Assembly (NCBI GenBank): GCA_045589515.1
Contig: JAZNPH010000050.1
Coordinates: forward strand, 137,668-201,667
Reading direction: 5' to 3'
DNA length: 64,000 nucleotides
Source: Eubacteriales bacterium
Lineage (GTDB): Bacteria > Bacillota > Clostridia > Oscillospirales > CAG-382
In this document: positions 12,738 through 23,449 of the stretch, piece by piece
Numbering within the stretch: the first letter of the stretch is position 1
How the letters are laid out: each line of letters starts with the position of its first letter
Notes under the pieces: generated by a model
The model's database searches: none
What the model was told of the DNA's origin: nothing
The model's input: only the letters and a program-made list of their open reading frames with translations
Translations under genes and position numbers: made by a program

Positions 12738-15700
12738 TTATTCCACCGTGATCTCCACGTAGCAGATTTGGGATTCCCCAAGGTAATTGTTGTAGGTGTA
12801 AGCGAAGGTGTCCTTCCCGGTGTAGCCGGGTTCGGGGAGATAGCGGAAGGTGCCGTCGACGGAAAGCACCACGCTGCCGTGGGTGGGAGAGCCCGCCGGG
12901 GTGTACCGTGCAGGAACGTCACCCCTATGCAGGGTGCCGTCCAGAATGGTGTCCTTCTTCGCCGTGAAGGTGAGGGTTTCTACCGTCTCGGGATAGACCT
13001 CCAGGGTGCCTTTTGCAAACCGGTAGGTGGATTCGTACTGCATGCGGCAGAGAGGCAGGTCGCTTCTTGCCATCTGTGCGAAGTTGTCACGGTCGTCGTA
13101 GTAGATCCGCACGCCCTCGTCGTACCCGGTGACAACGCCGTAATACAGATACAGCATATAGTTCCGCACGAAATGGGGGTCGGAAAGGGCCTGGTAGGAA
13201 TGCTCGATCTCCACGGACATATGGAGCTGCTTGGAAACCTCCGCGGTGTGGGTGAACTGCCACAGAGGCACGTCCCCGGTGAACATCACGTTGGGCTGCA
13301 TACAAACCAGGTCAAAGCCCAATTCGTACCCGGTGTAGTAGCGGTTGGCCACGTAGTAGGGAATCCAAAGAAGCTGTGAGCCTCTGTCGTGGATCACGTC
13401 GGCGGTCTCTTTTACCAAATGGGTGTCGTCTCTGCCGTAGCCGATGGCCTCGATGCCCCAGTAGAACCCGCCGAGCTCCAGGTTTTTATACCCGCGGGAG
13501 GCGAATTCCTCCAGGCACAGATCGGTGAACCACTCCAGAACCTTTTTGCGGTCTTCAGCCTTGGTAAGATCCTCGGAAACACCGTCCCCGTCCACGTCGC
13601 CGAAATCCTTCACCGTGTCACGGATGGGAAACAGGGAGAGGTAGATCTGCACCTTGTAATCGGGCTTGTTCAAGGCATCCTTGACGGTGCCCACCACTTC
13701 CTCCACGTGATCCATGCCCGTGGGGCCGTTGAACACGCAGTCAAAGAGGTGATCCCAGTCCTTTTTGTAGCTGGCCTCCGCCACCTTGGACTTGGAGGGA
13801 AGATCCTCTCCGTTGGAAAGGATAAAGCCGTCCATAAAGGTATCGGTGATATTGCCTTCCTCATCCAGATACGCCACGTAGGGTAGGAGACGGTTCAGAT
13901 CCGTCATTTGGGTGTTGATAAAGGAGATATCGTGGGCCTTCACGGAGGTGTTTTCCGTGGTGGCGTATTGGAGGGTCTCCTCGTTGGTGTAGAAACGATT
14001 GGGGACGATACCGCTGTCCTGTACGAGGACGGCGTCATCCTTCACTTCCTTGGTGCCGAAGGCCTCCAGCTCGTCCAGCCAAACGGATTCGTTGTAGCCG
14101 CATTCCACACGGAAGCGGACGAAGCGGGCGGCGTAGGGGGTGTCAAGGGTGAAGTCTAGAGTGACGGGGGAGAAATTGTTTCCCAGCTTGGATTCATCCC
14201 ACTTGCAATCGGAAACGGGATACCACAGATTGCCGTCGTTGGAGAGCAGGATCGTCACGAACTTGGGACGGGAGATGCCCCAGCTCTTCTGATCCAGTGT
14301 GTGCACCTTGAAGGACTCCAGAGTGGAGATGGCTCCCAGATCAAAGAAGAAATCAATGGCGTTGCCGCCGCTGGCAAAGAACCAGTCGGGGGCGTAGCAG
14401 GTCTTGCTGGTGGCCCGTTTGCCGTCGGTGAGAATGGGGCTGTCCCCGGGCGTGTGCTCCTTCTTCACCGTGGCGGGGGCGTAGTAAGAGGTGGCGATCT
14501 GTTGGAGCTTGCCAAAGAGCAGGTTTTGGGTCTTGTCGTAATCTGCGTCGCTTGGGTTCCAGTATACTTCCTCGGTGACGGCGGGGAAGCGTACCTTCCC
14601 GTAAACGGAATCCTCGGGGATGTTTTCCAGCCCCGCGAAGACTTCAATTTCCTCCACCCAATAATTCCCCGCGCCGGGGGCAAAGTCCAAACGGATATAC
14701 CTTGCGGATATAAATTCCGGCAACAGCAGGGTGTAGGTGTAATTATCTCCCTGCAAAGGGGCGTACATTCTACCTAAGAAGGTGTAAGTCTTGCCGTCCG
14801 CGGAGCCATAGGCGTCGATGTAATCCGCATACCGCACGTCGATCCCCGAGCCTAGGGCGTGGACACGGAGGTGGTACAGATCGGAACGCTTCTGCCCCAG
14901 ATCCAGCTTGATAGAGGAAAGATCCTTTTCTTTGGCCCGGATCCCCACCCAAACGGACTCGCTGAACAGGCGGGTGGTACGTTCCCCGTTGGTGAGAAGC
15001 TTGTCGTTCTTGGGGGCACGTTCGTCGAAGGTGCAGTTTTCAAAGGTATAGGTAGCGCCTGCGGCTGCGTTTTCCGAAGCGGCGGGCAGGGCTTCTTTCC
15101 TGGTGGAAAGGGATTTCCACGCCATACGGTCGATGTTCTCTTTGCCGTATGCCAGAGCAACGGTGTCTGTTTCCTCCTTGGGCGGCACGTCGGCGTAAAC
15201 CTCCAATTCATCCAAGAAAATGAACATTCCTCCGATACCCACCCGCATACGGATGCGGATATAGCGGTAGTCCGCCACCTCCTCCAACTCAAGCCTTGCG
15301 GAGCTGACGGTGAGGTAGCCCGTCTCCTCAAAATTCACGGTGCCCAGTCGTTCAAACTCCTTGCCGTCGTTGGAGCCGTAAAAGCGAGCGCTTTGAGCCA
15401 GCTTCACCCCGTCCTTGGTCTGATCCAGACTGCGGGCAACGATGGCGGAGATCCGTTTGCCGTCCTCTCCCAGATCGATGGTGAAGATCACGTCGGAGGC
15501 AAAGCCCACCATGCGGGAGTCGATATAATGGGCCCCCACATCGGGAGTCTTCAGCCCGTCGGTGAGCTGTTGATCAAAAAAGTCGTCGTATCCGCCGCCG
15601 GAGGGTTCCACGTTATAGGTGTAGGGCTTCCCTACGCTGACCAGGGTGTAAAGCCGCTCCTCCTTGTTGGTATTTTCCTCGGAGGAGGCCTCTTCCATAG

Positions 15701-15809
15701 AGGAGTCCTCGGAAGAGGGCGTCATGGATTCCGTTACCCCGCTTTCGCAAGCGGAAAACAAAAGCGTCGCCGCAAGGAGCAACAGAAGCCATTTTTTCAT
15801 ATATTTCAT
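12738..15809 (-). CDS. Large lipoprotein with discoidin (F5/8 type C) repeats, a DUF4855-like domain and a C-terminal Ig-like domain
   Basis: 1023 aa with lipobox LLFSAC. Several ...YIRIRM/YIRLDF/FVRFRV... discoidin-type beta-sandwich signatures. The C-terminal GKDTFAYTY... region is cadherin/Ig-like. Confidence 0.75.
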   Translation of the reverse strand: MKYMKKWLLLLLAATLLFSACESGVTESMTPSSEDSSMEEASSEENTNKEERLYTLVSVGKPYTYNVEPSGGGYDDFFDQQLTDGLKTPDVGAHYIDSRMVGFASDVIFTIDLGEDGKRISAIVARSLDQTKDGVKLAQSARFYGSNDGKEFERLGTVNFEETGYLTVSSARLELEEVADYRYIRIRMRVGIGGMFIFLDELEVYADVPPKEETDTVALAYGKENIDRMAWKSLSTRKEALPAASENAAAGATYTFENCTFDERAPKNDKLLTNGERTTRLFSESVWVGIRAKEKDLSSIKLDLGQKRSDLYHLRVHALGSGIDVRYADYIDAYGSADGKTYTFLGRMYAPLQGDNYTYTLLLPEFISARYIRLDFAPGAGNYWVEEIEVFAGLENIPEDSVYGKVRFPAVTEEVYWNPSDADYDKTQNLLFGKLQQIATSYYAPATVKKEHTPGDSPILTDGKRATSKTCYAPDWFFASGGNAIDFFFDLGAISTLESFKVHTLDQKSWGISRPKFVTILLSNDGNLWYPVSDCKWDESKLGNNFSPVTLDFTLDTPYAARFVRFRVECGYNESVWLDELEAFGTKEVKDDAVLVQDSGIVPNRFYTNEETLQYATTENTSVKAHDISFINTQMTDLNRLLPYVAYLDEEGNITDTFMDGFILSNGEDLPSKSKVAEASYKKDWDHLFDCVFNGPTGMDHVEEVVGTVKDALNKPDYKVQIYLSLFPIRDTVKDFGDVDGDGVSEDLTKAEDRKKVLEWFTDLCLEEFASRGYKNLELGGFYWGIEAIGYGRDDTHLVKETADVIHDRGSQLLWIPYYVANRYYTGYELGFDLVCMQPNVMFTGDVPLWQFTHTAEVSKQLHMSVEIEHSYQALSDPHFVRNYMLYLYYGVVTGYDEGVRIYYDDRDNFAQMARSDLPLCRMQYESTYRFAKGTLEVYPETVETLTFTAKKDTILDGTLHRGDVPARYTPAGSPTHGSVVLSVDGTFRYLPEPGYTGKDTFAYTYNNYLGESQICYVEITVE

Positions 15810-15934
15810 AGAAATCCTGTCCTTTCGCAGTATTACCTATAAGTATAGCATATTCCCAAATCTTTGGCAATCGTCAAGAGGGTCAAAAATTCTCCTCCCG
15901 TTTTATGAAAAATCCCGAAACACCAAACCCATCG

Positions 15935-15963
15935 TTGCATTTTCTTGCAGAGTGTGTTATACT
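15935..15963 (+). promoter_or_regulatory. Sigma-A-type promoter of the nitroreductase-WYL-WYL operon
   Basis: TTGCAT-17 nt-TATACT with a TGn extended -10, 25 nt before the 15988 ATG. Confidence 0.55.
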
Positions 15964-15987
15964 GTGGAAAACACTTGGAGGTCATTT

Positions 15988-16518
15988 ATGGAATTCTTTG
16001 AAACCTTATACAGCCGCAAAACGGTGCGGAGCTACAACGGAACCCCCGTGACCGAGGCAGAGCTGCAAGAGATCTTAAAAGCGGGCTACGCCGCCCCCAT
16101 CGGCAGAAGACGGTACGACACGTTGCATCTCACGGTGATCACCGATGCCGCTTTCCTTGCGGAATGGGAAAAACAGGTGGGGATCGAAAGCGGAAAAGAG
16201 GACGCTCATCCTTTTTACGGTGCGCCCACGGTGGTGCTCATCTCTTCTGTGGTGGACGAGGATCCCTACGGCAACGTGAACTACTCCAACGCCGCCTCCA
16301 TCGCCCAGAACATGGCCCTTGCGGCCTGTGACCTGGGTGTGGGTGCCTGCCACATCTGGGGCGCCGTCCGCACCTTGAACAACTGTCCCGACCTGCTGTC
16401 CCGCTTGCCTATCCCTGCGGGAATGAAGCCCGTTTGCTCGGTAGCCTTGGGACACACCGACGAGACCTATACCCTGCGGGAGATCCCCGCGCGGATCGAG
16501 ACCGCCTATTTGAAGTAA
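15988..16518 (+). CDS. Nitroreductase family protein
   Basis: MEFFETLYSRKTVRSYNGTPVTEAELQEILKAGYAAP... is a classic nitroreductase N-terminus. ATG at 15988 follows GGAGG. The upstream part of the ORF-track call is antisense read-through. Confidence 0.85.
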   Translation: MEFFETLYSRKTVRSYNGTPVTEAELQEILKAGYAAPIGRRRYDTLHLTVITDAAFLAEWEKQVGIESGKEDAHPFYGAPTVVLISSVVDEDPYGNVNYSNAASIAQNMALAACDLGVGACHIWGAVRTLNNCPDLLSRLPIPAGMKPVCSVALGHTDETYTLREIPARIETAYLK

Positions 16519-16540
16519 CCTGTGAAAGGAGAAGCCGTAT

Positions 16541-17788
16541 ATGTCCGCATACCGTGAGTTGATCAAAAATTTCGGGCGGATCCGCGCCTATATGCGGGAG
16601 TTCTATGTTTACGGCTTCAAGCATAGAGAGCAGTACGCCGCAAAAAGCCCCCGCTCCTACGACGACGAGCGCCGCCGCGTGGAAAGCTGGCTGGGGGATC
16701 ACATGGGCTTCGTCCGCACTCCCGAGGGGAAGAACGTGTTCCTTTCCATCGATAGCCGCAGGATGGATCACAATCCCCTGTACAAGGCCTGGAAGGCAAA
16801 AAGCTTCACCGACGGGGATATTACTTTGCATTTTATTCTGCTGGACATCCTGCATACTCCCGAGACGGCACTTTCCGCAGGGGAGCTGCTGCGGATCATG
16901 GACAGTGAGTATCTTTCTTCCTTTCAAAAGCCCTTGGCATTGGACGAATCCACCCTGCGGAAGAAGCTGAAGGAGTACGTCTCCGAGGGGATCTTGACCA
17001 TGGAAAAACAGGGGAAGCGGGTGCTTTACCGCCGTGCGACAGATACCGTCGCCCTTCCGTCTCGGGACGTGTTGGATCTGTTTTCCGAGATCCTGCCCTG
17101 CGGCGTCATCGGTTCTTTTATGCTGGACCGCACAGAGGAGCGGGACAGCCCCTTCCGCTTCAAGCACCACTACATCACCGGCACTTTGGAAAGCGACCTG
17201 ATGGCCGTCTTGTTCGACGCCATGGGGAAGGGGGCTTCCGTGACGGTCACCAACGCTGCAAGGCGTACGGGGGAGCCTAAGCGGGTACGGACGATCCCCT
17301 TGCGGATTTACATCAGCGTGCAAAGCGGCAGGCAGTATCTGGTGGCTTACGTGCCGGAGCAAAACCGCATCCGCGCCTTCCGTTTGGATTATCTTTCCGC
17401 CGTAAAGCTTGAAGAACCCACGCCCCGCTTTGGGGAATTGCGGGCAAGGCTGGATGCCATGGAGCCTTTTCTTTGGGGCGTGAACTTGAAGGATGGGAGC
17501 GGAAAAACGGAGACAATCTCCTTCACCGTGAAGGCGGGGTACAACGAAGGGTACATCATCGACCGTCTGAGGCGGGAAAAACGCACGGGTCAGGTGGAGT
17601 GCCTGGAAAACGGGCTGTACCGCTTTTCCGCCCAAGTGCAGGACGCAAGAGAGCTGCTTCCCTGGATCCGTACCTTCTTATGCCGCATTGTGGCCTTTGA
17701 CTGCTCCAATACCGGCGTTAAGGAGCAGTTTTTGCGGGATCTGAAGGCTATGTATGCGATCTATGGCTTGGGAGGTGATTCGGGATGA
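16541..17788 (+). CDS. WYL domain-containing putative transcriptional regulator (wHTH-WYL-C-terminal extension)
   Basis: 415 aa. The WYL-like core is ...RTIPLRIYISVQSGRQYLVAYVPEQNRIRAFRLDYLSAV.... A winged-helix-like segment lies upstream (LSAGELLRIM...TLRKKLKEYVSEGIL). It starts 22 nt after the nitroreductase. Confidence 0.8.
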   Translation: MSAYRELIKNFGRIRAYMREFYVYGFKHREQYAAKSPRSYDDERRRVESWLGDHMGFVRTPEGKNVFLSIDSRRMDHNPLYKAWKAKSFTDGDITLHFILLDILHTPETALSAGELLRIMDSEYLSSFQKPLALDESTLRKKLKEYVSEGILTMEKQGKRVLYRRATDTVALPSRDVLDLFSEILPCGVIGSFMLDRTEERDSPFRFKHHYITGTLESDLMAVLFDAMGKGASVTVTNAARRTGEPKRVRTIPLRIYISVQSGRQYLVAYVPEQNRIRAFRLDYLSAVKLEEPTPRFGELRARLDAMEPFLWGVNLKDGSGKTETISFTVKAGYNEGYIIDRLRREKRTGQVECLENGLYRFSAQVQDARELLPWIRTFLCRIVAFDCSNTGVKEQFLRDLKAMYAIYGLGGDSG

Positions 17789-18696
17789 TCTTCCGTGAAT
17801 ATTTTTCTGCCTATTACCGCACCGTGGGGAAGCTTCTGGAGGCGTTGCAGACGGGAACTCCAACGGAGAAGGAGCTTCAAGCCATCGTGAGGAGGTACGC
17901 CTTTGAGGAAAGCACCGCTGCCATCCTTCCCGCCTTAAAGCAGGGGGAGTGGCAGTTGATGAGGGTGGATCTTACCACGCCCATCCGTCACACCCCCACC
18001 ATGCCCTTGACCTTGATGGAAAAGCGTTGGCTGAAGGCGGTCTCCTTGGATCCCCGCATTCGTCTGTTCGATTTTTCCGCGGAGGGGTTGGAGGACGTGG
18101 AGCCTTTGTTCACCCCGCGGGACTTTCGTGTGTTTGACCGCTACGGTGACGGCGATCCCTACGAGGACGAGACTTACCGCCGCCATTTCCGTACCGCTTT
18201 GGAGGCGGTGAAGACGGGAAAGCCGTTGTTCATCCGCATGAAGGGACGGAAGGGCAACGATGTTTGTGCCGTTTGTATGCCCTACAAGCTGGAATACTCC
18301 GAAAAGGACGATAAATTCCGCCTCCTCACCCGAGGCAACCGCTACGTCACCACCCTGAATCTGGCAAAGCTTATAGAATGCCGTTTCCACGAAGGTGTTT
18401 GGCAGAACCGTCGGAGCAGGGAACAGCGGGAGCAATACGCCGTTGTGCTGGAGATCCACGACCGCCGCAACGCCATGGAGCGGGTGATGTTCCATTTCGC
18501 CCACTTCAAAAAGCAGGCGGAGAAGATGGGGCGGGAAAAATACCGTCTCACCCTTTGGTGCGACAAGGAGGACGAGATGGAGCTTGCCATCCGTATCCTG
18601 TCCTTCGGCCCCATGGTAAAGGTTTTGGAGCCTGCACCCATGGTGGATCTCATCCGAAAAAAGTTAATGATGCAGAAAAACTGCGGACTCATTTAA
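17785..18696 (+). CDS. Second WYL domain-containing protein, paired with the upstream one
   Basis: 303 aa with an ATGA overlap to the upstream WYL gene. Core ...VCMPYKLEYSEKDDKFRLLTRGNRYVTTLNLAKLIEC..., plus a WCX-like C-terminus (ELAIRILSFGPMVKVLEP). Confidence 0.75.
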   Translation: MIFREYFSAYYRTVGKLLEALQTGTPTEKELQAIVRRYAFEESTAAILPALKQGEWQLMRVDLTTPIRHTPTMPLTLMEKRWLKAVSLDPRIRLFDFSAEGLEDVEPLFTPRDFRVFDRYGDGDPYEDETYRRHFRTALEAVKTGKPLFIRMKGRKGNDVCAVCMPYKLEYSEKDDKFRLLTRGNRYVTTLNLAKLIECRFHEGVWQNRRSREQREQYAVVLEIHDRRNAMERVMFHFAHFKKQAEKMGREKYRLTLWCDKEDEMELAIRILSFGPMVKVLEPAPMVDLIRKKLMMQKNCGLI

Positions 18697-18714
18697 GAGT
18701 TCGCAGCTTTTTTT
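18681..18714 (+). terminator. Intrinsic terminator overlapping the stop codon of the second WYL gene
   Basis: CTGCGGACTC/GAGTTCGCAG 10-bp stem (one G-U pair), a 6-nt loop containing the TAA stop, then CTTTTTTT. Confidence 0.75.
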
Positions 18715-18724
18715 CCGTGTTTTT

Positions 18725-18895
18725 ACAGGAAAACCATGGTAAACTGTGCTTGCAAGAGGGAAGACGGAGCGTTTCCTCACACGCCGGGGTGCGGCGGAGG
18801 CTTTCTCCGAGCGTATTCCCAAGTCCTCTCTCTTGTAAAAAGCAGGTTCGATTCCTGCGGTATGCACTCAAAAAATGCATACTCCTATGGTTTGG
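18725..18895 (+). ncRNA. Candidate structured RNA with a tRNA-like T-arm. It could be Y-RNA-like or tRNA-like, or a tRNA 3'-fragment relic.
   Basis: GCAGG-TTCGATT-CCTGC (18842-18858) is a canonical 5-bp T-stem with a 7-nt T-loop. GGTATGCA follows. A closing helix pairs AAACCATGG (18731-18739) with CC-T-ATGGTTT (18884-18893). There are several internal hairpins and no credible ORF. Confidence 0.3.
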
Positions 18896-19122
18896 GAAAG
18901 CGCTCTTCGGAGCAAAAACGGTACGCGAAAGCGTGCGAGAACGTTTTTATGCAAAACCAAGGTGCTCCCGCAAAGACGGCAAGCTTGGGGGACACGCCGC
19001 CTTTGCAGTGAAAGGATCGCCTTGCCGGGGAGAGGATACCGCATTCTTGCATAGAAAAGAGTGCTGAATCTTCCTGCCGCGGTCCTTTCACGGAAGCGCC
19101 CTTCAAGGAAGGAAGAAAAGTG
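18896..19122 (+). promoter_or_regulatory. Long structured leader of the hyp-SPFH-rtcB operon
   Basis: It has a UUCG-capped hairpin (18902-18913) and a GAAA-capped hairpin inside an AAAACG/CGTTTT helix (18915-18947). There is an 11-bp stem at 18970-19006. Long-range pairs are TATGCAA/TTGCATA (18948-54/19047-53) and GTGAAAGGATC/GGTCCTTTCAC (19008-18/19082-92). CTTCC can pair with the RBS GGAAG. Confidence 0.3.
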
Positions 19123-19719
19123 ATGTTTTGGAAAGACAGGAAAAAATTCAGAAAAAAGATCAGCGCCGCTTTTCCCGGCGTCTGCCAAAAGGACGTTTTG
19201 GCGGTGTTGAGACGTCTCCTTCCCGGGGGATTTGCCGAGATCGGTGAAGGCATGACTTGGCAGCTATCCGACGGCGAAACCGTCTCTCTCCCGCGCTGTG
19301 TGTGGCATTCGGATGTCCTGCTTCCGGGTTTTCCGCTGACGGAACGGCAAAAGCTGATCTACCACTGCATTTTCACACGAAGTTCAGACGGATACGCCCG
19401 ACAGCGGCACGCGGAAGCGCTTTTGGAACGGGAGACCCCGGAGTGGGTGTTGCCCTTTGTCGTCCAGCTGAGCCAGAGCTACGTGGCGGAGATCTTAGAG
19501 GCGATCTATAACGGGTTGCGGGAACGTGACAACCAAGACTATCGCGCTTTCTGCCGTTTGAACTACACCACCTTCCACAGGGGCTACGACAGAATGCTCA
19601 GCTATTGGGCGGAATACTACCGTTGGTACGATCCCCGTACCCAAAAATACTGCAAGACACGCTATCGTGATTACGTAGGCTGGAAGCTGTACGCCGAGGT
19701 CTTCGGCTGTAAAAAATAG
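19123..19719 (+). CDS. Hypothetical protein, first gene of the SPFH-RtcB operon
   Basis: 198 aa, Trp/Tyr/Arg-rich C-terminus. ATG at 19123 is 7-10 nt after AAGGAAGGAAG. No family recognised. Confidence 0.6.
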   Translation: MFWKDRKKFRKKISAAFPGVCQKDVLAVLRRLLPGGFAEIGEGMTWQLSDGETVSLPRCVWHSDVLLPGFPLTERQKLIYHCIFTRSSDGYARQRHAEALLERETPEWVLPFVVQLSQSYVAEILEAIYNGLRERDNQDYRAFCRLNYTTFHRGYDRMLSYWAEYYRWYDPRTQKYCKTRYRDYVGWKLYAEVFGCKK

Positions 19720-19740
19720 AAGGAAGAAAGGAATCTACTT

Positions 19741-20838
19741 ATGAAAACGATCATCCATGAAAATATGAAAGGTCTGCTGTTCAAGAACGGCAGATTCCAA
19801 AGGCTGCTGGGCGCGGGAAAATACTGCACGTGGGGCGGCAAGGTCATTGAGACGGTGGCGTTGGATGCCCCGCTGGAAAGTGCATATTGCTCTTTGGAGG
19901 CGCTGTTGGCCGATCCCGTGATCGCCGCAAAGACGGTCACCGTGGAGGTAGGGGAGCAACAGCTGGCTTTGCACTATGCGGACGGTCTGTTCTGTCACGC
20001 CCTCACCGCCGGTAAATACGCTTTCTGGAGGGAAGGCAAAAACCACGAGTTCCGTATGGTGGACGTTTCCCGTCCCGAGGCAGACCCCGATCTGCCCGCT
20101 CATCTGTACGCAAAGCTTCCAAAGACGCTTTACGCCAAGGTGGAGGTGGCTCCCCACCAAAAAGCCATGCTGTTTGTGGATTGCAAGCCTGTCAAGCTGT
20201 TGGATGCGGGCGTTTACCATTTCTGGAACAACGACGTGTCCGTGGAGGTCAAAAAGGCGGACGTTCGTCTGTGTTCCATGACGGTATCCGGTCAGGAGCT
20301 GCTCACCAAGGACAAGGTGACCTTGCGGATCACCTTCGTTTGCAGCTTCCGTGTCACGGATCCCGAAAAGGCTCTGACCTTGGTGGATGATTACGTCTCC
20401 CAACTGTACGTAGCGGTACAGCTGGCATTGCGGGAATACGTGGGCAGTTACCGTCTGGATGAGATTCTGGAAAACAAGGAGGAGATCTCCCGTTACGTGC
20501 TGGAAAAGCTTGCCGCAAAGCGAGAAGAGCTGTTTGTGGAGATCACCGAGGCGGGTGTGAAGGATATCATTCTCCCCGGCGAGATCCGGGAGATCATGAA
20601 CACCGTGTTGGCGGCGGAGAAACGGGCGCAAGCCAACGTGATCACCCGCCGTGAGGAGGTGGCCTCTACCCGTTCTCTGCTGAACACCGCCAAATTGATG
20701 GAGGAGAATCCCATCCTTTACAGATTGAAGGAACTGGAATATCTGGAGAGGATCTGCGAAAACGTAGGCAATATCCAACTAAGCGGCGGCGATATGCTTA
20801 CCCAACTGACCGCACTGTTCCGAAGCGGTGCTACCTAA
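19741..20838 (+). CDS. SPFH/band-7 (slipin-like) protein with a ~180-aa N-terminal extension
   Basis: The C-terminal half ...LTKDKVTLRITFVCSFRVTDPEKA...VKDIILPGEIREIMNTVLAAEKRAQANVI... is an SPFH domain. 21-nt gap from the upstream gene. Confidence 0.8.
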   Translation: MKTIIHENMKGLLFKNGRFQRLLGAGKYCTWGGKVIETVALDAPLESAYCSLEALLADPVIAAKTVTVEVGEQQLALHYADGLFCHALTAGKYAFWREGKNHEFRMVDVSRPEADPDLPAHLYAKLPKTLYAKVEVAPHQKAMLFVDCKPVKLLDAGVYHFWNNDVSVEVKKADVRLCSMTVSGQELLTKDKVTLRITFVCSFRVTDPEKALTLVDDYVSQLYVAVQLALREYVGSYRLDEILENKEEISRYVLEKLAAKREELFVEITEAGVKDIILPGEIREIMNTVLAAEKRAQANVITRREEVASTRSLLNTAKLMEENPILYRLKELEYLERICENVGNIQLSGGDMLTQLTALFRSGAT

Positions 20839-20850
20839 AGGAGAATTGAT

Positions 20851-22059
20851 ATGATCGAAATAAAAGGAAAACATAACACCGCCGTTTGTTACACCGACAC
20901 CATGGAGGAGGGAGCAATGGCACAGATCAAGACCATGTGCGATCTGGAGGCATTCTCAGGCTCCCGCATCCGCATCATGCCCGATGTGCACGAGGGGATG
21001 GGATGTACCATCGGCACCACCATGACCGTGACGGATAAAGTGGTTCCCGCCATGGTGGGGGTGGACATCGGATGCGGAATGTATACCATGGCATTGGGAA
21101 AGGTAGATTTGGACCTCGCTTTGCTGGACGAGGCGGCCCACGGCATTCCTTGCGGCTTTTCCGTATGGGAGGGCAGGCAGGAGCGGTTTGACCTGACGGA
21201 GCTGAAGTGCTACCGCTATCTGAAGGACTCCAAGCGCTTGGAGCGAAGCCTTGGCACTCTGGGCGGGGGCAATCACTTCATCGAGGCGGACGTGGATGAT
21301 GAGGGAAATCATTATTTGGTGATCCACTCCGGGAGCCGTAATTTGGGCACCCAGGTGGCCAATTACTACCAGGACCTTGCCGCAGACCTGAATGCGGGGA
21401 AGGAGGACCTCTTCCGCGAAAGAGAGGAGCTGATCCGTATCTACAAGGAGCAGGGGAGGCGCACGGAAATTCAAAAGGCCTTGAAGGAGCTGGAAAAGGC
21501 CTACGAGGCCAAATCTCCCACCCTGCCCAGAGAGCTTTGCTACCTCTACGGAGACTTTATGGAGAGCTACCTCCACGACATCCGCATCTGTCAGCAGTTT
21601 GCAGGGCGGAATCGGGAGAAGATGGGGGAGATCCTCCTTGCCAAGCTGGGGCTTGAGGCGGCAGACGCCTTCCACACGGTGCACAACTACATCGATGTGG
21701 AGGCGGGCATCCTCCGCAAGGGTGCAGTTTCCGCGGCGGCGGGAGAGAAATTGTTGATCCCCATCAATATGCGGGACGGAAGCCTGATTTGCATCGGCAA
21801 AGGCAACCCCGATTGGAACTTTTCCGCACCCCACGGGGCGGGGCGGTTGATGTCCCGTGCCAAGGCCTTTGAGAAGCTGACCATGGAGGAGTACCGTAAG
21901 GAGATGGCGGGGATCTACACCACCTGCGTCAACGAGAACACCTTAGACGAGTCTCCCATGGCCTACAAAAGCATGGAGGAGATCTTACGCCATATCGGGG
22001 ATACCGCGGAGGTGGTCGCTCATATCAAGCCCATCTACAATTTCAAAGCGCCGGATTGA
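20851..22059 (+). CDS. rtcB: RtcB-family RNA 3'-phosphate ligase
   Basis: Motifs PDVHEGMGCTIG, VGVDIGCGM, GGGNHFIE, HSGSRNLG and APHGAGR. 402 aa. 12-nt gap after the SPFH gene, followed by a terminator. Confidence 0.9.
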   Translation: MIEIKGKHNTAVCYTDTMEEGAMAQIKTMCDLEAFSGSRIRIMPDVHEGMGCTIGTTMTVTDKVVPAMVGVDIGCGMYTMALGKVDLDLALLDEAAHGIPCGFSVWEGRQERFDLTELKCYRYLKDSKRLERSLGTLGGGNHFIEADVDDEGNHYLVIHSGSRNLGTQVANYYQDLAADLNAGKEDLFREREELIRIYKEQGRRTEIQKALKELEKAYEAKSPTLPRELCYLYGDFMESYLHDIRICQQFAGRNREKMGEILLAKLGLEAADAFHTVHNYIDVEAGILRKGAVSAAAGEKLLIPINMRDGSLICIGKGNPDWNFSAPHGAGRLMSRAKAFEKLTMEEYRKEMAGIYTTCVNENTLDESPMAYKSMEEILRHIGDTAEVVAHIKPIYNFKAPD

Positions 22060-22065
22060 CCGAGA

Positions 22066-22100
22066 CGGGAGATTTTTTAGGAAGTCTCCCGCTCTTTTTG
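22066..22100 (+). terminator. Intrinsic terminator after rtcB
   Basis: CGGGAGA/TCTCCCG stem followed by CTCTTTTT. Confidence 0.6.
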
Positions 22101-22122
22101 TTCTCCGAGGCGAGAAAATCAG

Positions 22123-22151
22123 TTGCAATTCCTATAAAACTGTGGTATAAT
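22123..22151 (+). promoter_or_regulatory. Sigma-A-type promoter of mtaD-ahcY
   Basis: TTGCAA-17 nt-TATAAT with a TGn extended -10. Confidence 0.6.
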
Positions 22152-22189
22152 ATTCCAAAGAGTATAATAGGAGGAGTGTTGAAACAGAT

Positions 22190-23449
22190 ATGGAAAGCAT
22201 TCTCATCAAAAATACGAAAGCCCTATCCGGTGGGCAGGTGGTGGAGGCGGAGATCGCTATCGAAAACGGCGTGATCCTTTCCATGACGGGTACCCCCGAA
22301 GGCTTTACGGCAGATAAAGTGATCGACGGGGAAGGGAAGCTTTGTATTCCCGGCCTGGTCAATGCCCACACCCACGTGTATATGACCCTGTTCCGCAACT
22401 ACGCCGACGACGTGGCCTTTACCGAGTGGCTCTTCGGCCGTGTTCTCCCCAAGGAGGACGCCATGTCCGTGGAGGATGCCTATTGGGGCACTCTGCTGGG
22501 CTGTATCGAAATGGTAAAAAGCGGCACCACCACCTTCTGCGATATGTACCCCATTGCGGGGATGTCCGCAGAGGCCGCCCGCAAGGCTGGTATGCGCGCC
22601 GTGGTGAGCAGAGGGCTGACAGGCTCCGAGGGCGGAGAACGGCGGATCGCCGAGGCCTTGGGAGAATGGGAGACCTGGAAGCATGATCCCATGGTGACCC
22701 ATATGCTGGCACCCCACGCCATCTATACCTGCGATACTCCCTTCCTGGAGCGGGTGATGCAGGTCTCCGACGAGACGGGAATGCTGATCAACACCCACCT
22801 TTCAGAGTCCGAAAAGGAGATCGCCGATTGTATTGAAGCACACGGCTGCTCTCCTGTGGAATACCTGGCAAAGCTGGGGATGTTCGACCGCAAAACCTTG
22901 GCCGCTCATTGCGTACACCTTTCCGAGCTTGACATCATGCTGTTGGCGGAAAAAGGGGTCTCTGTTGCCCACAACCCCAAGAGCAATCTGAAGCTTGCCA
23001 ACGGTATCGCTCCCGTAAAACAGCTTTTGGACGCAGGAGTGAACGTGTGCCTGGGTACCGACGGCGCAGGCTCCAACAACACCTTGAATATGTTCTCCGA
23101 AATGAACTTCGCCTGCCTCCTGCCCAAGGGTGTGAACAAGCAGGGAGATGTGGTCAGCGCCAACACCGTTTTGCAGATGGCCACGGCAAACGGCGCCAAG
23201 GCACTGTCTCTGGACAAGCTGGGCGACCTGCAGGCAGGCTGGAAGGCTGATATTGCCATCCTGAACCTTGACTATCCCTGGATGCATCCCATGCATAACG
23301 TGGCAAACGCCCTGTGTTATTCCGCCACCGGCACCGAGGTGGAAACGGTGATCATCGGCGGCGAAGTGGTAATGGAAAACCGCAAGATGACCAAGATCGA
23401 CGAAGAAGAGGTCTACGCAAATATCGCGCGGATCGCAAAGGATTGGTAA
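22190..23449 (+). CDS. mtaD: Amidohydrolase, 5'-methylthioadenosine/S-adenosylhomocysteine deaminase-like
   Basis: ...CIPGLVNAHTHVYMTLFRNYADDV...WL... is a metal-binding HxH motif in the MtaD context. It is adjacent to ahcY. Confidence 0.75.
   Translation: MESILIKNTKALSGGQVVEAEIAIENGVILSMTGTPEGFTADKVIDGEGKLCIPGLVNAHTHVYMTLFRNYADDVAFTEWLFGRVLPKEDAMSVEDAYWGTLLGCIEMVKSGTTTFCDMYPIAGMSAEAARKAGMRAVVSRGLTGSEGGERRIAEALGEWETWKHDPMVTHMLAPHAIYTCDTPFLERVMQVSDETGMLINTHLSESEKEIADCIEAHGCSPVEYLAKLGMFDRKTLAAHCVHLSELDIMLLAEKGVSVAHNPKSNLKLANGIAPVKQLLDAGVNVCLGTDGAGSNNTLNMFSEMNFACLLPKGVNKQGDVVSANTVLQMATANGAKALSLDKLGDLQAGWKADIAILNLDYPWMHPMHNVANALCYSATGTEVETVIIGGEVVMENRKMTKIDEEEVYANIARIAKDW

Follow-up and report, generated by a model that had tools for sequence, protein, structure and literature searches.

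What does a perfect tRNA-like T-arm do in the spacer of an operon for RNA repair? RtcB repair operons are widespread, and little is understood of their natural substrates and accessory factors. In the window (the whole stretch of 64,000 nucleotides analysed here), such an operon is preceded by a T-arm, GCAGG-TTCGATT-CCTGC at 18842-18858. The original prediction read it as part of a tRNA-mimic module of a YrlA-like RNA, or else as the relic of a tRNA 3' half. From the comparison of related loci, the T-arm forms part of a structured non-coding RNA of ~350 nt that is conserved and extends over about 18748-19100. Our best explanation, to which we give a probability of roughly 0.7, is that this RNA is the Band-7/SPFH-associated tRNA-like RNA of an RtcB RNA-repair operon, a member of the predicted b7a-tRNA class, and we propose that it acts as a processed partner RNA of the SPFH protein. 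Added here are a structure model supported by covariation, a covariance model that detects the RNA across phyla, and statistics on the strict co-occurrence of the RNA with SPFH.

Genes and putative promoter region of the operon

The features of the locus are listed in Table 1. On the + strand, the two WYL genes and their terminator are followed by the spacer of 423 nt, the 199-aa ORF, the SPFH gene, and rtcB. RtcB, described in the original prediction as next to the spacer, is actually 2 kb downstream, behind the 199-aa ORF and the SPFH gene. The spacer had also been called ORF-free; mechanical ORFs are present in it, and none of them is conserved. The same module (WYL-A, WYL-B, a spacer of ~500 nt, an optional 199-aa ORF, SPFH, and RtcB) is found in 80 genome loci of Oscillospiraceae and other Clostridia.

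Table 1. Coordinates of the features of the RtcB operon and its spacer RNA in the window
Feature	Position	Strand	Basis
WYL-A, 415 aa, first of tandem WYL-domain regulator gene pair	16541..17788	+	Pfam WYL, E = 5e-7
WYL-B, 303 aa, HTH-WYL-WCX type, second regulator gene	17785..18696	+	Pfam WCX just under cut-off; PADLOC WYL
Intrinsic terminator of WYL genes / inverted repeat	18681-18706 + T-run (region 18681..18719)	+	terminator scan
Conserved element TTCGCAGCTTTTTTTCCGTG, overlapping WYL terminator region	18700-18719	+	alignment of 35 spacers
Putative extended -10 box TGGTAAACT (family consensus TGGTAAAAT), without -35 consensus	18737..18745	+	family conservation
5' three-way junction	18750..18838	+	window MFE fold from inferred start; family alignment
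P1	18750-18761 with 18824-18838	+	covaries in family alignment
P2	18769-18772 with 18781-18784	+	covaries in family alignment
P3	18786-18793 with 18812-18819, around hairpin 18795-18809	+	covaries in family alignment
T-arm GCAGG / UUCGAUU / CCUGC	18842..18858	+	covarying stem, conserved loop
Loop-closed acceptor-like hairpin GUAUGCA / UGCAUAC, directly 3' of T-arm	18860..18882	+	helix 8
D-arm-like element CC-UAUGGUUU-GG (family consensus CC-AGUGGUUU-GG)	18884..18895	+	helix 9
UUCG-capped hairpin	18900-18913	+	alignment A3 (35 spacers)
Conserved element AACGGUACGCGAAAGCGUGCGAGAACGUU	18917-18945	+	alignment A3 (35 spacers); BLAST
3' domain: outer helix 18961-18968 with 19092-19100; long hairpin 19006-19092	18961..19100	+	sequence-only alignment; model R2
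199-aa ORF, function unassigned, optional operon member	19120..19719	+	rare in databases
SPFH/Band-7 (stomatin-like) protein	19741..20838	+	Pfam Band_7, E = 3e-25
RtcB RNA ligase	20851..22059	+	Pfam RtcB, E = 1e-57

The two WYL genes overlap, and WYL-A adjoins WYL-B in every related locus whose contig reaches far enough. WYL-A has a PADLOC WYL match and a weak Csa3-like match over residues 74-185. For WYL-B, which has 7051 homologues, the AF2 model (pLDDT 76.6) resembles PafBC, DriD, CapW, and BrxR in a search of PDB structures (E = 1.7e-8 to 1e-4). Structures bound to single-stranded DNA have been solved for PafBC, DriD, and CapW, and transcription is activated by PafBC and DriD. When the PDB was searched by sequence, nothing useful emerged for the 199-aa ORF, DUF2828, WYL-A, or WYL-B. 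The 199-aa ORF is found in a minority of the related loci and in only 11 protein clusters in a search of 5.8 billion proteins. It has no Pfam, NCBIfam, PADLOC, or PHROGs match, and its AF2 model (pLDDT 60.6) is too poor for a structure search. The SPFH protein is similar to stomatins in the PDB (best E = 1.5e-18), and no membrane segment is predicted in it (maximum 19-residue hydropathy, 1.24). A scan of the eight ORFs around the spacer (12738-23449) shows no Ro/TROVE gene, as originally stated; the same ORFs have no DUF2828 match, and a DUF2828 query gives no tblastn match in the whole window. The missing Ro is explained by the SPFH/Band-7 protein being the putative partner here, as in the predicted b7a-tRNA class.

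The element TTCGCAGCTTTTTTTCCGTG is invariant or nearly so across 35 spacers whose WYL-B proteins are just ~50% identical, and it is a candidate operator or upstream promoter element. The extended -10 box stands at a fixed spacing from it in SPFH-type and DUF2828-type loci alike. A consensus promoter scan that needs both hexamers (at least 9/12) lists none at 18737-18745. From this conservation we infer a promoter role for the box, with a transcription start near 18748-18752. The RNA would then be co-transcribed with the 199-aa ORF, SPFH, and RtcB; no + strand terminator is found by the terminator scan from the RNA to the ORFs (18717-19300). The promoter lies just 3' of the PafBC/DriD-like WYL genes, and because the fold of WYL-B matches the activators PafBC and DriD, the WYL proteins probably activate it.

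This promoter region bears on the closing stem that had been drawn around the segment, between AAACCATGG (18731-18739) and CCTATGGTTT (18884-18893). Both strands are found at these positions, and the pairing does not hold. Its 5' strand overlaps the extended -10 box and lies upstream of the inferred start, and its 3' strand coincides with the conserved D-like loop. The run of nine nucleotides exists only in the clade of the window and is reached in 5.5% of shuffles.

Helices of the spacer RNA

The 171-nt segment 18725-18895 is more stable than shuffled sequences on the + strand (z = -4.3) and on the - strand (z = -3.7), and folding energy therefore does not choose the strand. For the whole spacer (403 nt in this test) z is -5.5. 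By chance, a window would hold 0.29 matches to the T-loop consensus GGTTCGANTCC, and one or more turn up in 24 of 100 shuffles, so that sequence alone proves little. The T-arm rises above chance because of its conserved position, 150-230 nt 3' of the WYL-B stop in most of the 80 related loci, and because a covariance model matches in the window. The terminator scan lists an intrinsic terminator on the minus strand (GCAGGAATCGAACCTGC, then TTTTT), and given how often the motif alone is expected, the T-arm might have been such a terminator or a chance hairpin. The comparative data refute this reading and leave its probability practically nil. No family-conserved - strand gene ends there, only unconserved mechanical ORFs; the conserved form of the loop is the + strand T-loop UUCGAAU, whereas the flanking A-run is not conserved; and the model matches on the strand of the SPFH and RtcB genes wherever these genes have been mapped.

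The covariance model R1 has 169 positions and 43 pairs and was built from 11 canonical copies. It gives 51 full-length matches, the window included, all of them between WYL-B and the next gene; the match in the window covers 18751-18895 (23.9 bits, E = 3.7e-5). In the alignment of 55 matches to R1 (A8), 93.9% of the cells are paired versus 79.4% in shuffles and 28-60% in slid controls, and compensatory changes occur at 35 of the 43 pairs (301 compensatory cells versus 78 +/- 9 in shuffles), pair counts that are inflated by the fitting of this alignment to the proposed structure. The MFE fold of the window copy from the inferred start agrees with the mapping of the helices by the family model.

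The 5' part is a three-way junction, whose helices P1, P1b, P2, and P3 are 88-99% paired in the family alignment and show compensatory changes. In P1 and P1b, the 5' end of the RNA pairs with the segment after GYGUAUGCC; in P3, GUGCRC pairs with GYGUAU. Two local hairpins of the original prediction give way to these helices. One is CAAG-N8-CTTG, present at 18820-18835, where CUCUUG and the 5' end together make up the covarying P1 instead. The other is the hairpin at 18756-18778, over which the long-range P1 is preferred; the related locus L006 has P1 (AGGGG/CCCCU) without the local hairpin.

Another helix, P4, is an anticodon-arm-like hairpin that is supported in the family and missing from the window copy. 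It has a stem of 4-6 bp and a 7-nt loop in canonical members. The tRNA-like module could be imagined as a bait or sentinel, a decoy or competitive inhibitor for tRNA-targeting nucleases, with cleavage products or religation by RtcB feeding back on the WYL activators. The loop of this hairpin, which precedes the T-arm, is anticodon-loop-like (YU-NNN-AA, often CUGUNAA), and about 10 of 16 such loops have GUN, the Tyr/His/Asn/Asp set, a bias that comes from few and related sequences. The structural relatives of WYL-B are activated in response to single-stranded nucleic acid, and the role of a competitive inhibitor was earlier proposed for YrlA. However, YrlA was not cleaved by the Salmonella anticodon nuclease. 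Moreover, the hairpin is absent from the window and from L006, L007, L012, L013, and L087, and yet the RNA is still 90% identical between the window and L012/L013. We consider a bait function quite unlikely.

The three elements from the T-arm to the D-like loop are shown by the family alignment to be conserved helices, and their order is that of YrlA. The T-stem covaries (C-G 35 / U-A 15; G-C 36 / A-U 15), and among the aligned copies the T-loop is UUCGAAU in 34 and UUCGAUU in 7. In the hairpin 3' of the T-arm (GTATGCA/TGCATAC, 18860-18882) all seven pairs have compensatory changes, in 3-26 sequences per pair; it reads GUACA/UGUAC in L006, where the changes relative to the window are compensatory. 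The D-like element is 97% paired, both of its stem pairs covary, and the GG of its loop is conserved. Covariation in the family alignment thus supports the T-stem, the hairpin at 18860-18882, and the D-like stem. The idea of a tRNA-mimic module in an RtcB-operon RNA is supported with it, as the order T, closed acceptor, D covaries over the 55 matches.

The acceptor stem fares differently. GGTATGCA is indeed present right after the T-arm (18859-18866), where it had been taken for a 3' acceptor strand; it covaries with the strand downstream of it and not with the upstream one. The upstream partner that had been named, GCGTATT (18811-18817), pairs with GGTATGC (18859-18865) in 84.6% of cases versus 82.7% in shuffles, a level due to both columns being rich in G and U, and compensatory cells number 5 versus 3.0 expected.

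The 3' domain was aligned with MAFFT by sequence only and independently of R1. In this alignment 87.8% of the cells are paired versus 63.6% in shuffles, 34 of 37 pairs have compensatory changes, and compensatory cells number 324 versus 104 in shuffles. Within its long hairpin, the internal loops GCCUUGCC, GGAUACCG, CUGAAU, and GCCGC are conserved, and the window copy has a shortened distal stem. The model of this domain, R2, matches the window with 68.4 bits (E = 9e-20), and it does not detect the domain in the most distant high-GC loci. Between the two domains, the element AACGGUACGCGAAAGCGUGCGAGAACGUU has BLAST matches in the distant loci L019, L044, L047, L062, L066, and L067.

Since the RNA always stands directly 5' of the operon genes, shares their strand, and is separated from them by no intrinsic terminator, it may be asked whether it is a cis-acting leader. 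In this case the ~350-nt structure would be a 5' UTR that switches pairings (upon binding of a ligand, of tRNA or tRNA fragments, or upon cleavage) to control the downstream ORFs, and not a trans-acting subunit. The motif pair GUGCRC/GYGUAU occurs twice (A:B and A':B'), and B could pair with A or A' in a switch-like layout; the alternative B:A' pairing is 84.6% pairable. However, A:B and A':B' covary whereas B:A' does not. Neither a terminator/antiterminator nor a helix hiding the ribosome-binding site is found, and the last helix is followed by ~40 unstructured nt before the Shine-Dalgarno sequence, which lies outside the conserved helices. Relatives from which the RNA has been deleted keep the promoter and the Shine-Dalgarno sequence, and the Y RNAs of the analogous operon in Salmonella act as separate RNAs although they are encoded within it. 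A leader is therefore unlikely in our view.

In the window, every Rfam 15 family stays below its gathering score. At E <= 10 the spacer has nothing relevant, neither a T-box nor a riboswitch, and one canonical relative likewise gives nothing relevant. The Rfam tRNA model matches just the 17 nt of the T-arm (11.6 bits), and ARAGORN calls no tRNA anywhere in the window.

Linkage to SPFH, distant relatives, and loss

Among loci with sufficient downstream sequence, the RNA is found in 39 of 40 SPFH loci, 0 of 19 DUF2828 loci, and 0 of 8 loci with neither gene (0/27 without SPFH). The single SPFH locus without it is the deletion variant L010. A scan of metagenomes with a motif taken from P3 alone (GGTRCRC..GYGTATGCC) yielded at least 120 stretches, and R1 has 65 matches in 81 loci (80 metagenome stretches and one viral contig). 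The metagenome matches lie directly 5' of SPFH and then RtcB, on the same strand.

The matches include high-GC contigs, where SPFH and RtcB are 35-38% and 31-32% identical to those of the window and a WYL pair is absent; R1 scores 19-35 bits in these loci. ARAGORN calls two abutting tRNA-like genes in the high-GC contigs. R1 aligns the T-arm of the window to the T-arm of the first gene, the hairpin at 18860-18882 to the junction of the two acceptor strands, and the D-like loop to the second gene's D-arm. On this alignment, the Clostridial module may be a fused and permuted derivative of tandem tRNA-like genes. With the Rfam tRNA model, the relative L044 reaches 41.2 bits.

In DUF2828/DUF7788 loci (e.g., L042), the same WYL regulators, promoter architecture, and RtcB occur together with a DUF2828 protein and repeated stem units in arrays, which take the place of SPFH and the RNA. 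The unit is AAAGRYRC.AACAGCAA ... RYRYCUUG, and several units enclose tRNA-like modules. The T-arm is common to both kinds of loci, and R1 matches just the hairpin-plus-T-arm part in the arrays. In contrast to the single RNA of the window, the arrays consist of short repeated stem units, and a DUF2828/DUF7788 protein stands in place of SPFH. That WYL regulators and RtcB are paired with either DUF2828 and arrays or SPFH and the RNA argues that the two RNA-protein pairs are functionally interchangeable.

In the closest relatives, L001, L010, and L011 (90-95% identical), 339 nt (18767-19105) are missing, with promoter, operon, and Shine-Dalgarno sequence kept intact. The junction lies between the imperfect direct repeats GCAAGAGGGAAGA and TCAAGGAAGGAAGA. 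Since the RNA is found in more distant relatives, the absence is a deletion. Some lineages can therefore do without the RNA, and the window copy could be decaying. This copy is 90% identical to those of L012 and L013, whose flanking genes are 77-84% identical to those of the window at the DNA level.

A segment missing from the closest relatives, in which a T-arm with its 3' strand resembles a tRNA 3' half, could also be a relic left by an integrase (an att-site duplication) or a small mobile insertion, the alternative named in the original prediction. The comparative data refute it, and we regard it as very improbable. The element occupies the same position in more distant relatives, including some in other phyla and some whose WYL-B identity is as low as ~50%, so that it was the close relatives that lost it, and the junction between direct repeats speaks for deletion. 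Self-BLAST finds no second copy of the spacer in the window, and none is found in phage or plasmid collections; the exact T-arm 22-mer is in no viral contig, and the 5' motif has one chance viral match. The window has no tRNA genes, and the supposed 3' acceptor strand covaries with a downstream strand.

Comparison with b7a-tRNA and YrlA, and the proposed role

In the literature on RtcB together with WYL or SPFH and an RNA, the one mention found is that of b7a-tRNA (band-7-associated tRNA), given second-hand in a preprint (bioRxiv 10.1101/312249). According to this preprint, b7a-tRNA was predicted by Burroughs and Aravind (NAR 2016) and was unvalidated in 2018; it is described as strongly tRNA-like, encoded beside Band-7 and RtcB, and regarded as functionally redundant with YrlA (Wang et al. 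2018). Like it, the window RNA has tRNA features and lies beside an SPFH gene and RtcB. The co-occurrence with SPFH (39/40 vs 0/27) and the recurrence of the RNA-SPFH-RtcB arrangement in distant phyla add to the likeness. Unlike b7a-tRNA, the window copy has no tRNA call, no anticodon arm, and no acceptor stem of 5' and 3' ends, and its tRNA-like part, compared here with a second-hand description, is contained in an RNA of ~350 nt that also comprises a 5' junction and a 3' domain with covariation. The window RNA thus appears to be a stripped-down variant of the b7a-tRNA class, an identity that is drawn from this second-hand description and from gene context.

YrlA comes from rsr-yrlBA-rtcBA operons (Chen et al. 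2014; Wang et al. 2018). It has nearly invariant T and D stem-loops, with a variable, loop-closed acceptor-like stem-loop between them (bioRxiv 10.1101/312249). The same order of T, loop-closed acceptor-like, and D elements is found in the window RNA, and a stem-loop before the T element is optional. Both RNAs are encoded in RtcB operons, and both lack a free CCA end. Further features of YrlA are modifications of the tRNA type (pseudouridine 55 by TruB, dihydrouridine by DusA) and an L-shaped fold. On the other hand, there is no Ro60/Rsr gene in the window locus, where SPFH is the partner gene, and the Ro-binding motif GNCGAAN0-1G is absent, by regular expression, from the window RNA and three canonical members. 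The window RNA also lacks the terminal stem of 5' and 3' ends, is three times longer, and has the additional 3' domain. With a canonical tRNA it shares the T-arm with the loop UUCGAUU, a 7-bp helix that continues the T-stem, and a D-loop-like GG element. Unlike in a tRNA, this helix ends in a loop, the D-like element follows on its 3' side (a permuted order), and there is no anticodon arm.

These comparisons point to the following role for the spacer RNA. The three elements would fold as a circularly permuted mimic of the tRNA 'elbow plus acceptor/T minihelix', from which the anticodon arm would have been lost in the clade of the window. The RNA would be processed out of the operon transcript. 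It would then be the partner of a soluble SPFH oligomer and present a tRNA-shaped surface, by which RtcB or factors that bind tRNA would be recruited to, or organised on, damaged substrates resembling tRNA. Such a function would parallel the role proposed for Y RNA with Ro in rsr-rtcB operons. Against this explanation stand the low score of the window copy (23.9 bits) and its lack of the anticodon-like hairpin and of part of the 3' hairpin.

A more specific version is possible, though we hold it as tentative and rather doubtful. It sees the RNA as a two-domain molecule of ~350-430 nt whose permuted elbow arose from two tandem tRNA-like genes. It would be an obligate subunit of a soluble SPFH-ring/RtcB particle, similar to the Ro/Y-RNA RNP with an unrelated scaffold, and maybe a bait whose damage products turn on the WYL activators. 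If this is true, the 5' junction and the 3' domain would represent an undescribed RNA family, absent from Rfam 15. The relationship between the RNA, SPFH, and RtcB is now directly testable, and canonical copies are carried by the cultured bacteria Ruthenibacterium lactatiformans 585-1 and Hominibacterium faecale SF3.

Modules of the tRNA-like RNA

The tRNA-like part of the RNA upstream of SPFH-RtcB varies among related genome loci (L handles in the table). In family members, the hairpin found 5' of the T-arm resembles an anticodon arm and usually has a 7-nt loop, YU-NNN-AA. In about 10 of 16 such loops the triplet is GUN, the anticodon set of Tyr, His, Asn, and Asp; the triplet at this position is UUU in L044 and UAC in L041 and L061. 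The hairpin is absent from the window clade (the window copy and relatives such as L012 and L013) and from L087. Expanded family members have a second T-arm-like hairpin (GGGGTTCAACTCCCC) upstream of the main one, with further hairpins on its 5' side. From these sequences, the tRNA-like part appears to be modular and to have been duplicated in some lineages.

Coordinates of features in the window and in related loci
Feature	Locus	Positions	Remarks
WYL-A gene	window	16541-17788
Terminator of WYL genes	window	18681-18719	inverted repeat CTGCGGACTC...GAGTTCGCAG
Polymorphic segment	window	18767-19105	compared with L001, L010, L011
Polymorphic segment	window	19734-20836	compared with L001, L010, L011
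199-aa ORF	window	19120-19719	between RNA and SPFH
Site of missing distal stem, 3' hairpin	window	19042-19063	also missing in L012, L013
Distal stem, 3' hairpin	L006	1770-1830	kept
Hairpin before T-arm	L089	2298-2312	also L062, L047, L067, L021, L052, others
Second T-arm-like hairpin	L052	4030-4050	also L028, L023, L055, L056, L060, L066, L048, L037
DUF2828-type locus	L042	7950-9020	also L034, L036, L051, L054, L072, L076, L083

Reduction and loss

In most family members the 3' hairpin has a distal stem, GCCAAAAG...CUUUCCGC. This stem is absent from the window, L012, and L013, so the window clade is reduced in both RNA domains. Presence of the RNA is itself polymorphic among loci 90-95% identical to the window. 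In L001 and L011 the RNA and the SPFH gene are both missing; in L010 only the RNA is. The junction of the RNA deletion is flanked by imperfect direct repeats, GCAAGAGGGAAGA and TCAAGGAAGGAAGA.

Locus classes and the 199-aa ORF

DUF2828-type loci form a second class, which shares the WYL-A and WYL-B genes, promoter, and RtcB with SPFH-type loci. SPFH is replaced by a DUF2828/DUF7788 protein, sometimes with RlaP added. Within their 1-1.5-kb spacer, stem units of the form AAAGRYRC.AACAGCAA ... RYRYCTTG are repeated in arrays. tRNA-like modules sit inside several of the units; they score 32-35 bits with the Rfam tRNA model, and ARAGORN gives them odd anticodons.

Most SPFH-type loci lack the 199-aa ORF, whose family is very rare (11 clusters among 5.8 billion proteins) and gives no domain match. 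Its position varies, being 3' of SPFH in L044 and directly 3' of WYL-B in L070 and L086. A homologue in L002/L003 lies in an unrelated glycoside-hydrolase/glycine-cleavage context.

WYL regulators and a candidate operator

The 5' arm of the terminator inverted repeat lies inside the WYL-B coding sequence. The 3' arm and the following T7-CCGTG are invariant across relatives with about 50% protein identity. Such conservation goes far beyond the needs of a terminator, making this stretch a candidate operator at which the WYL regulators would act. Residues 74-185, in the N-terminal half of WYL-A, weakly match a Csa3 model (PADLOC, E = 1e-5). RtcR of proteobacterial rtc operons has a CARF sensor, which this region would echo if it is CARF-like.
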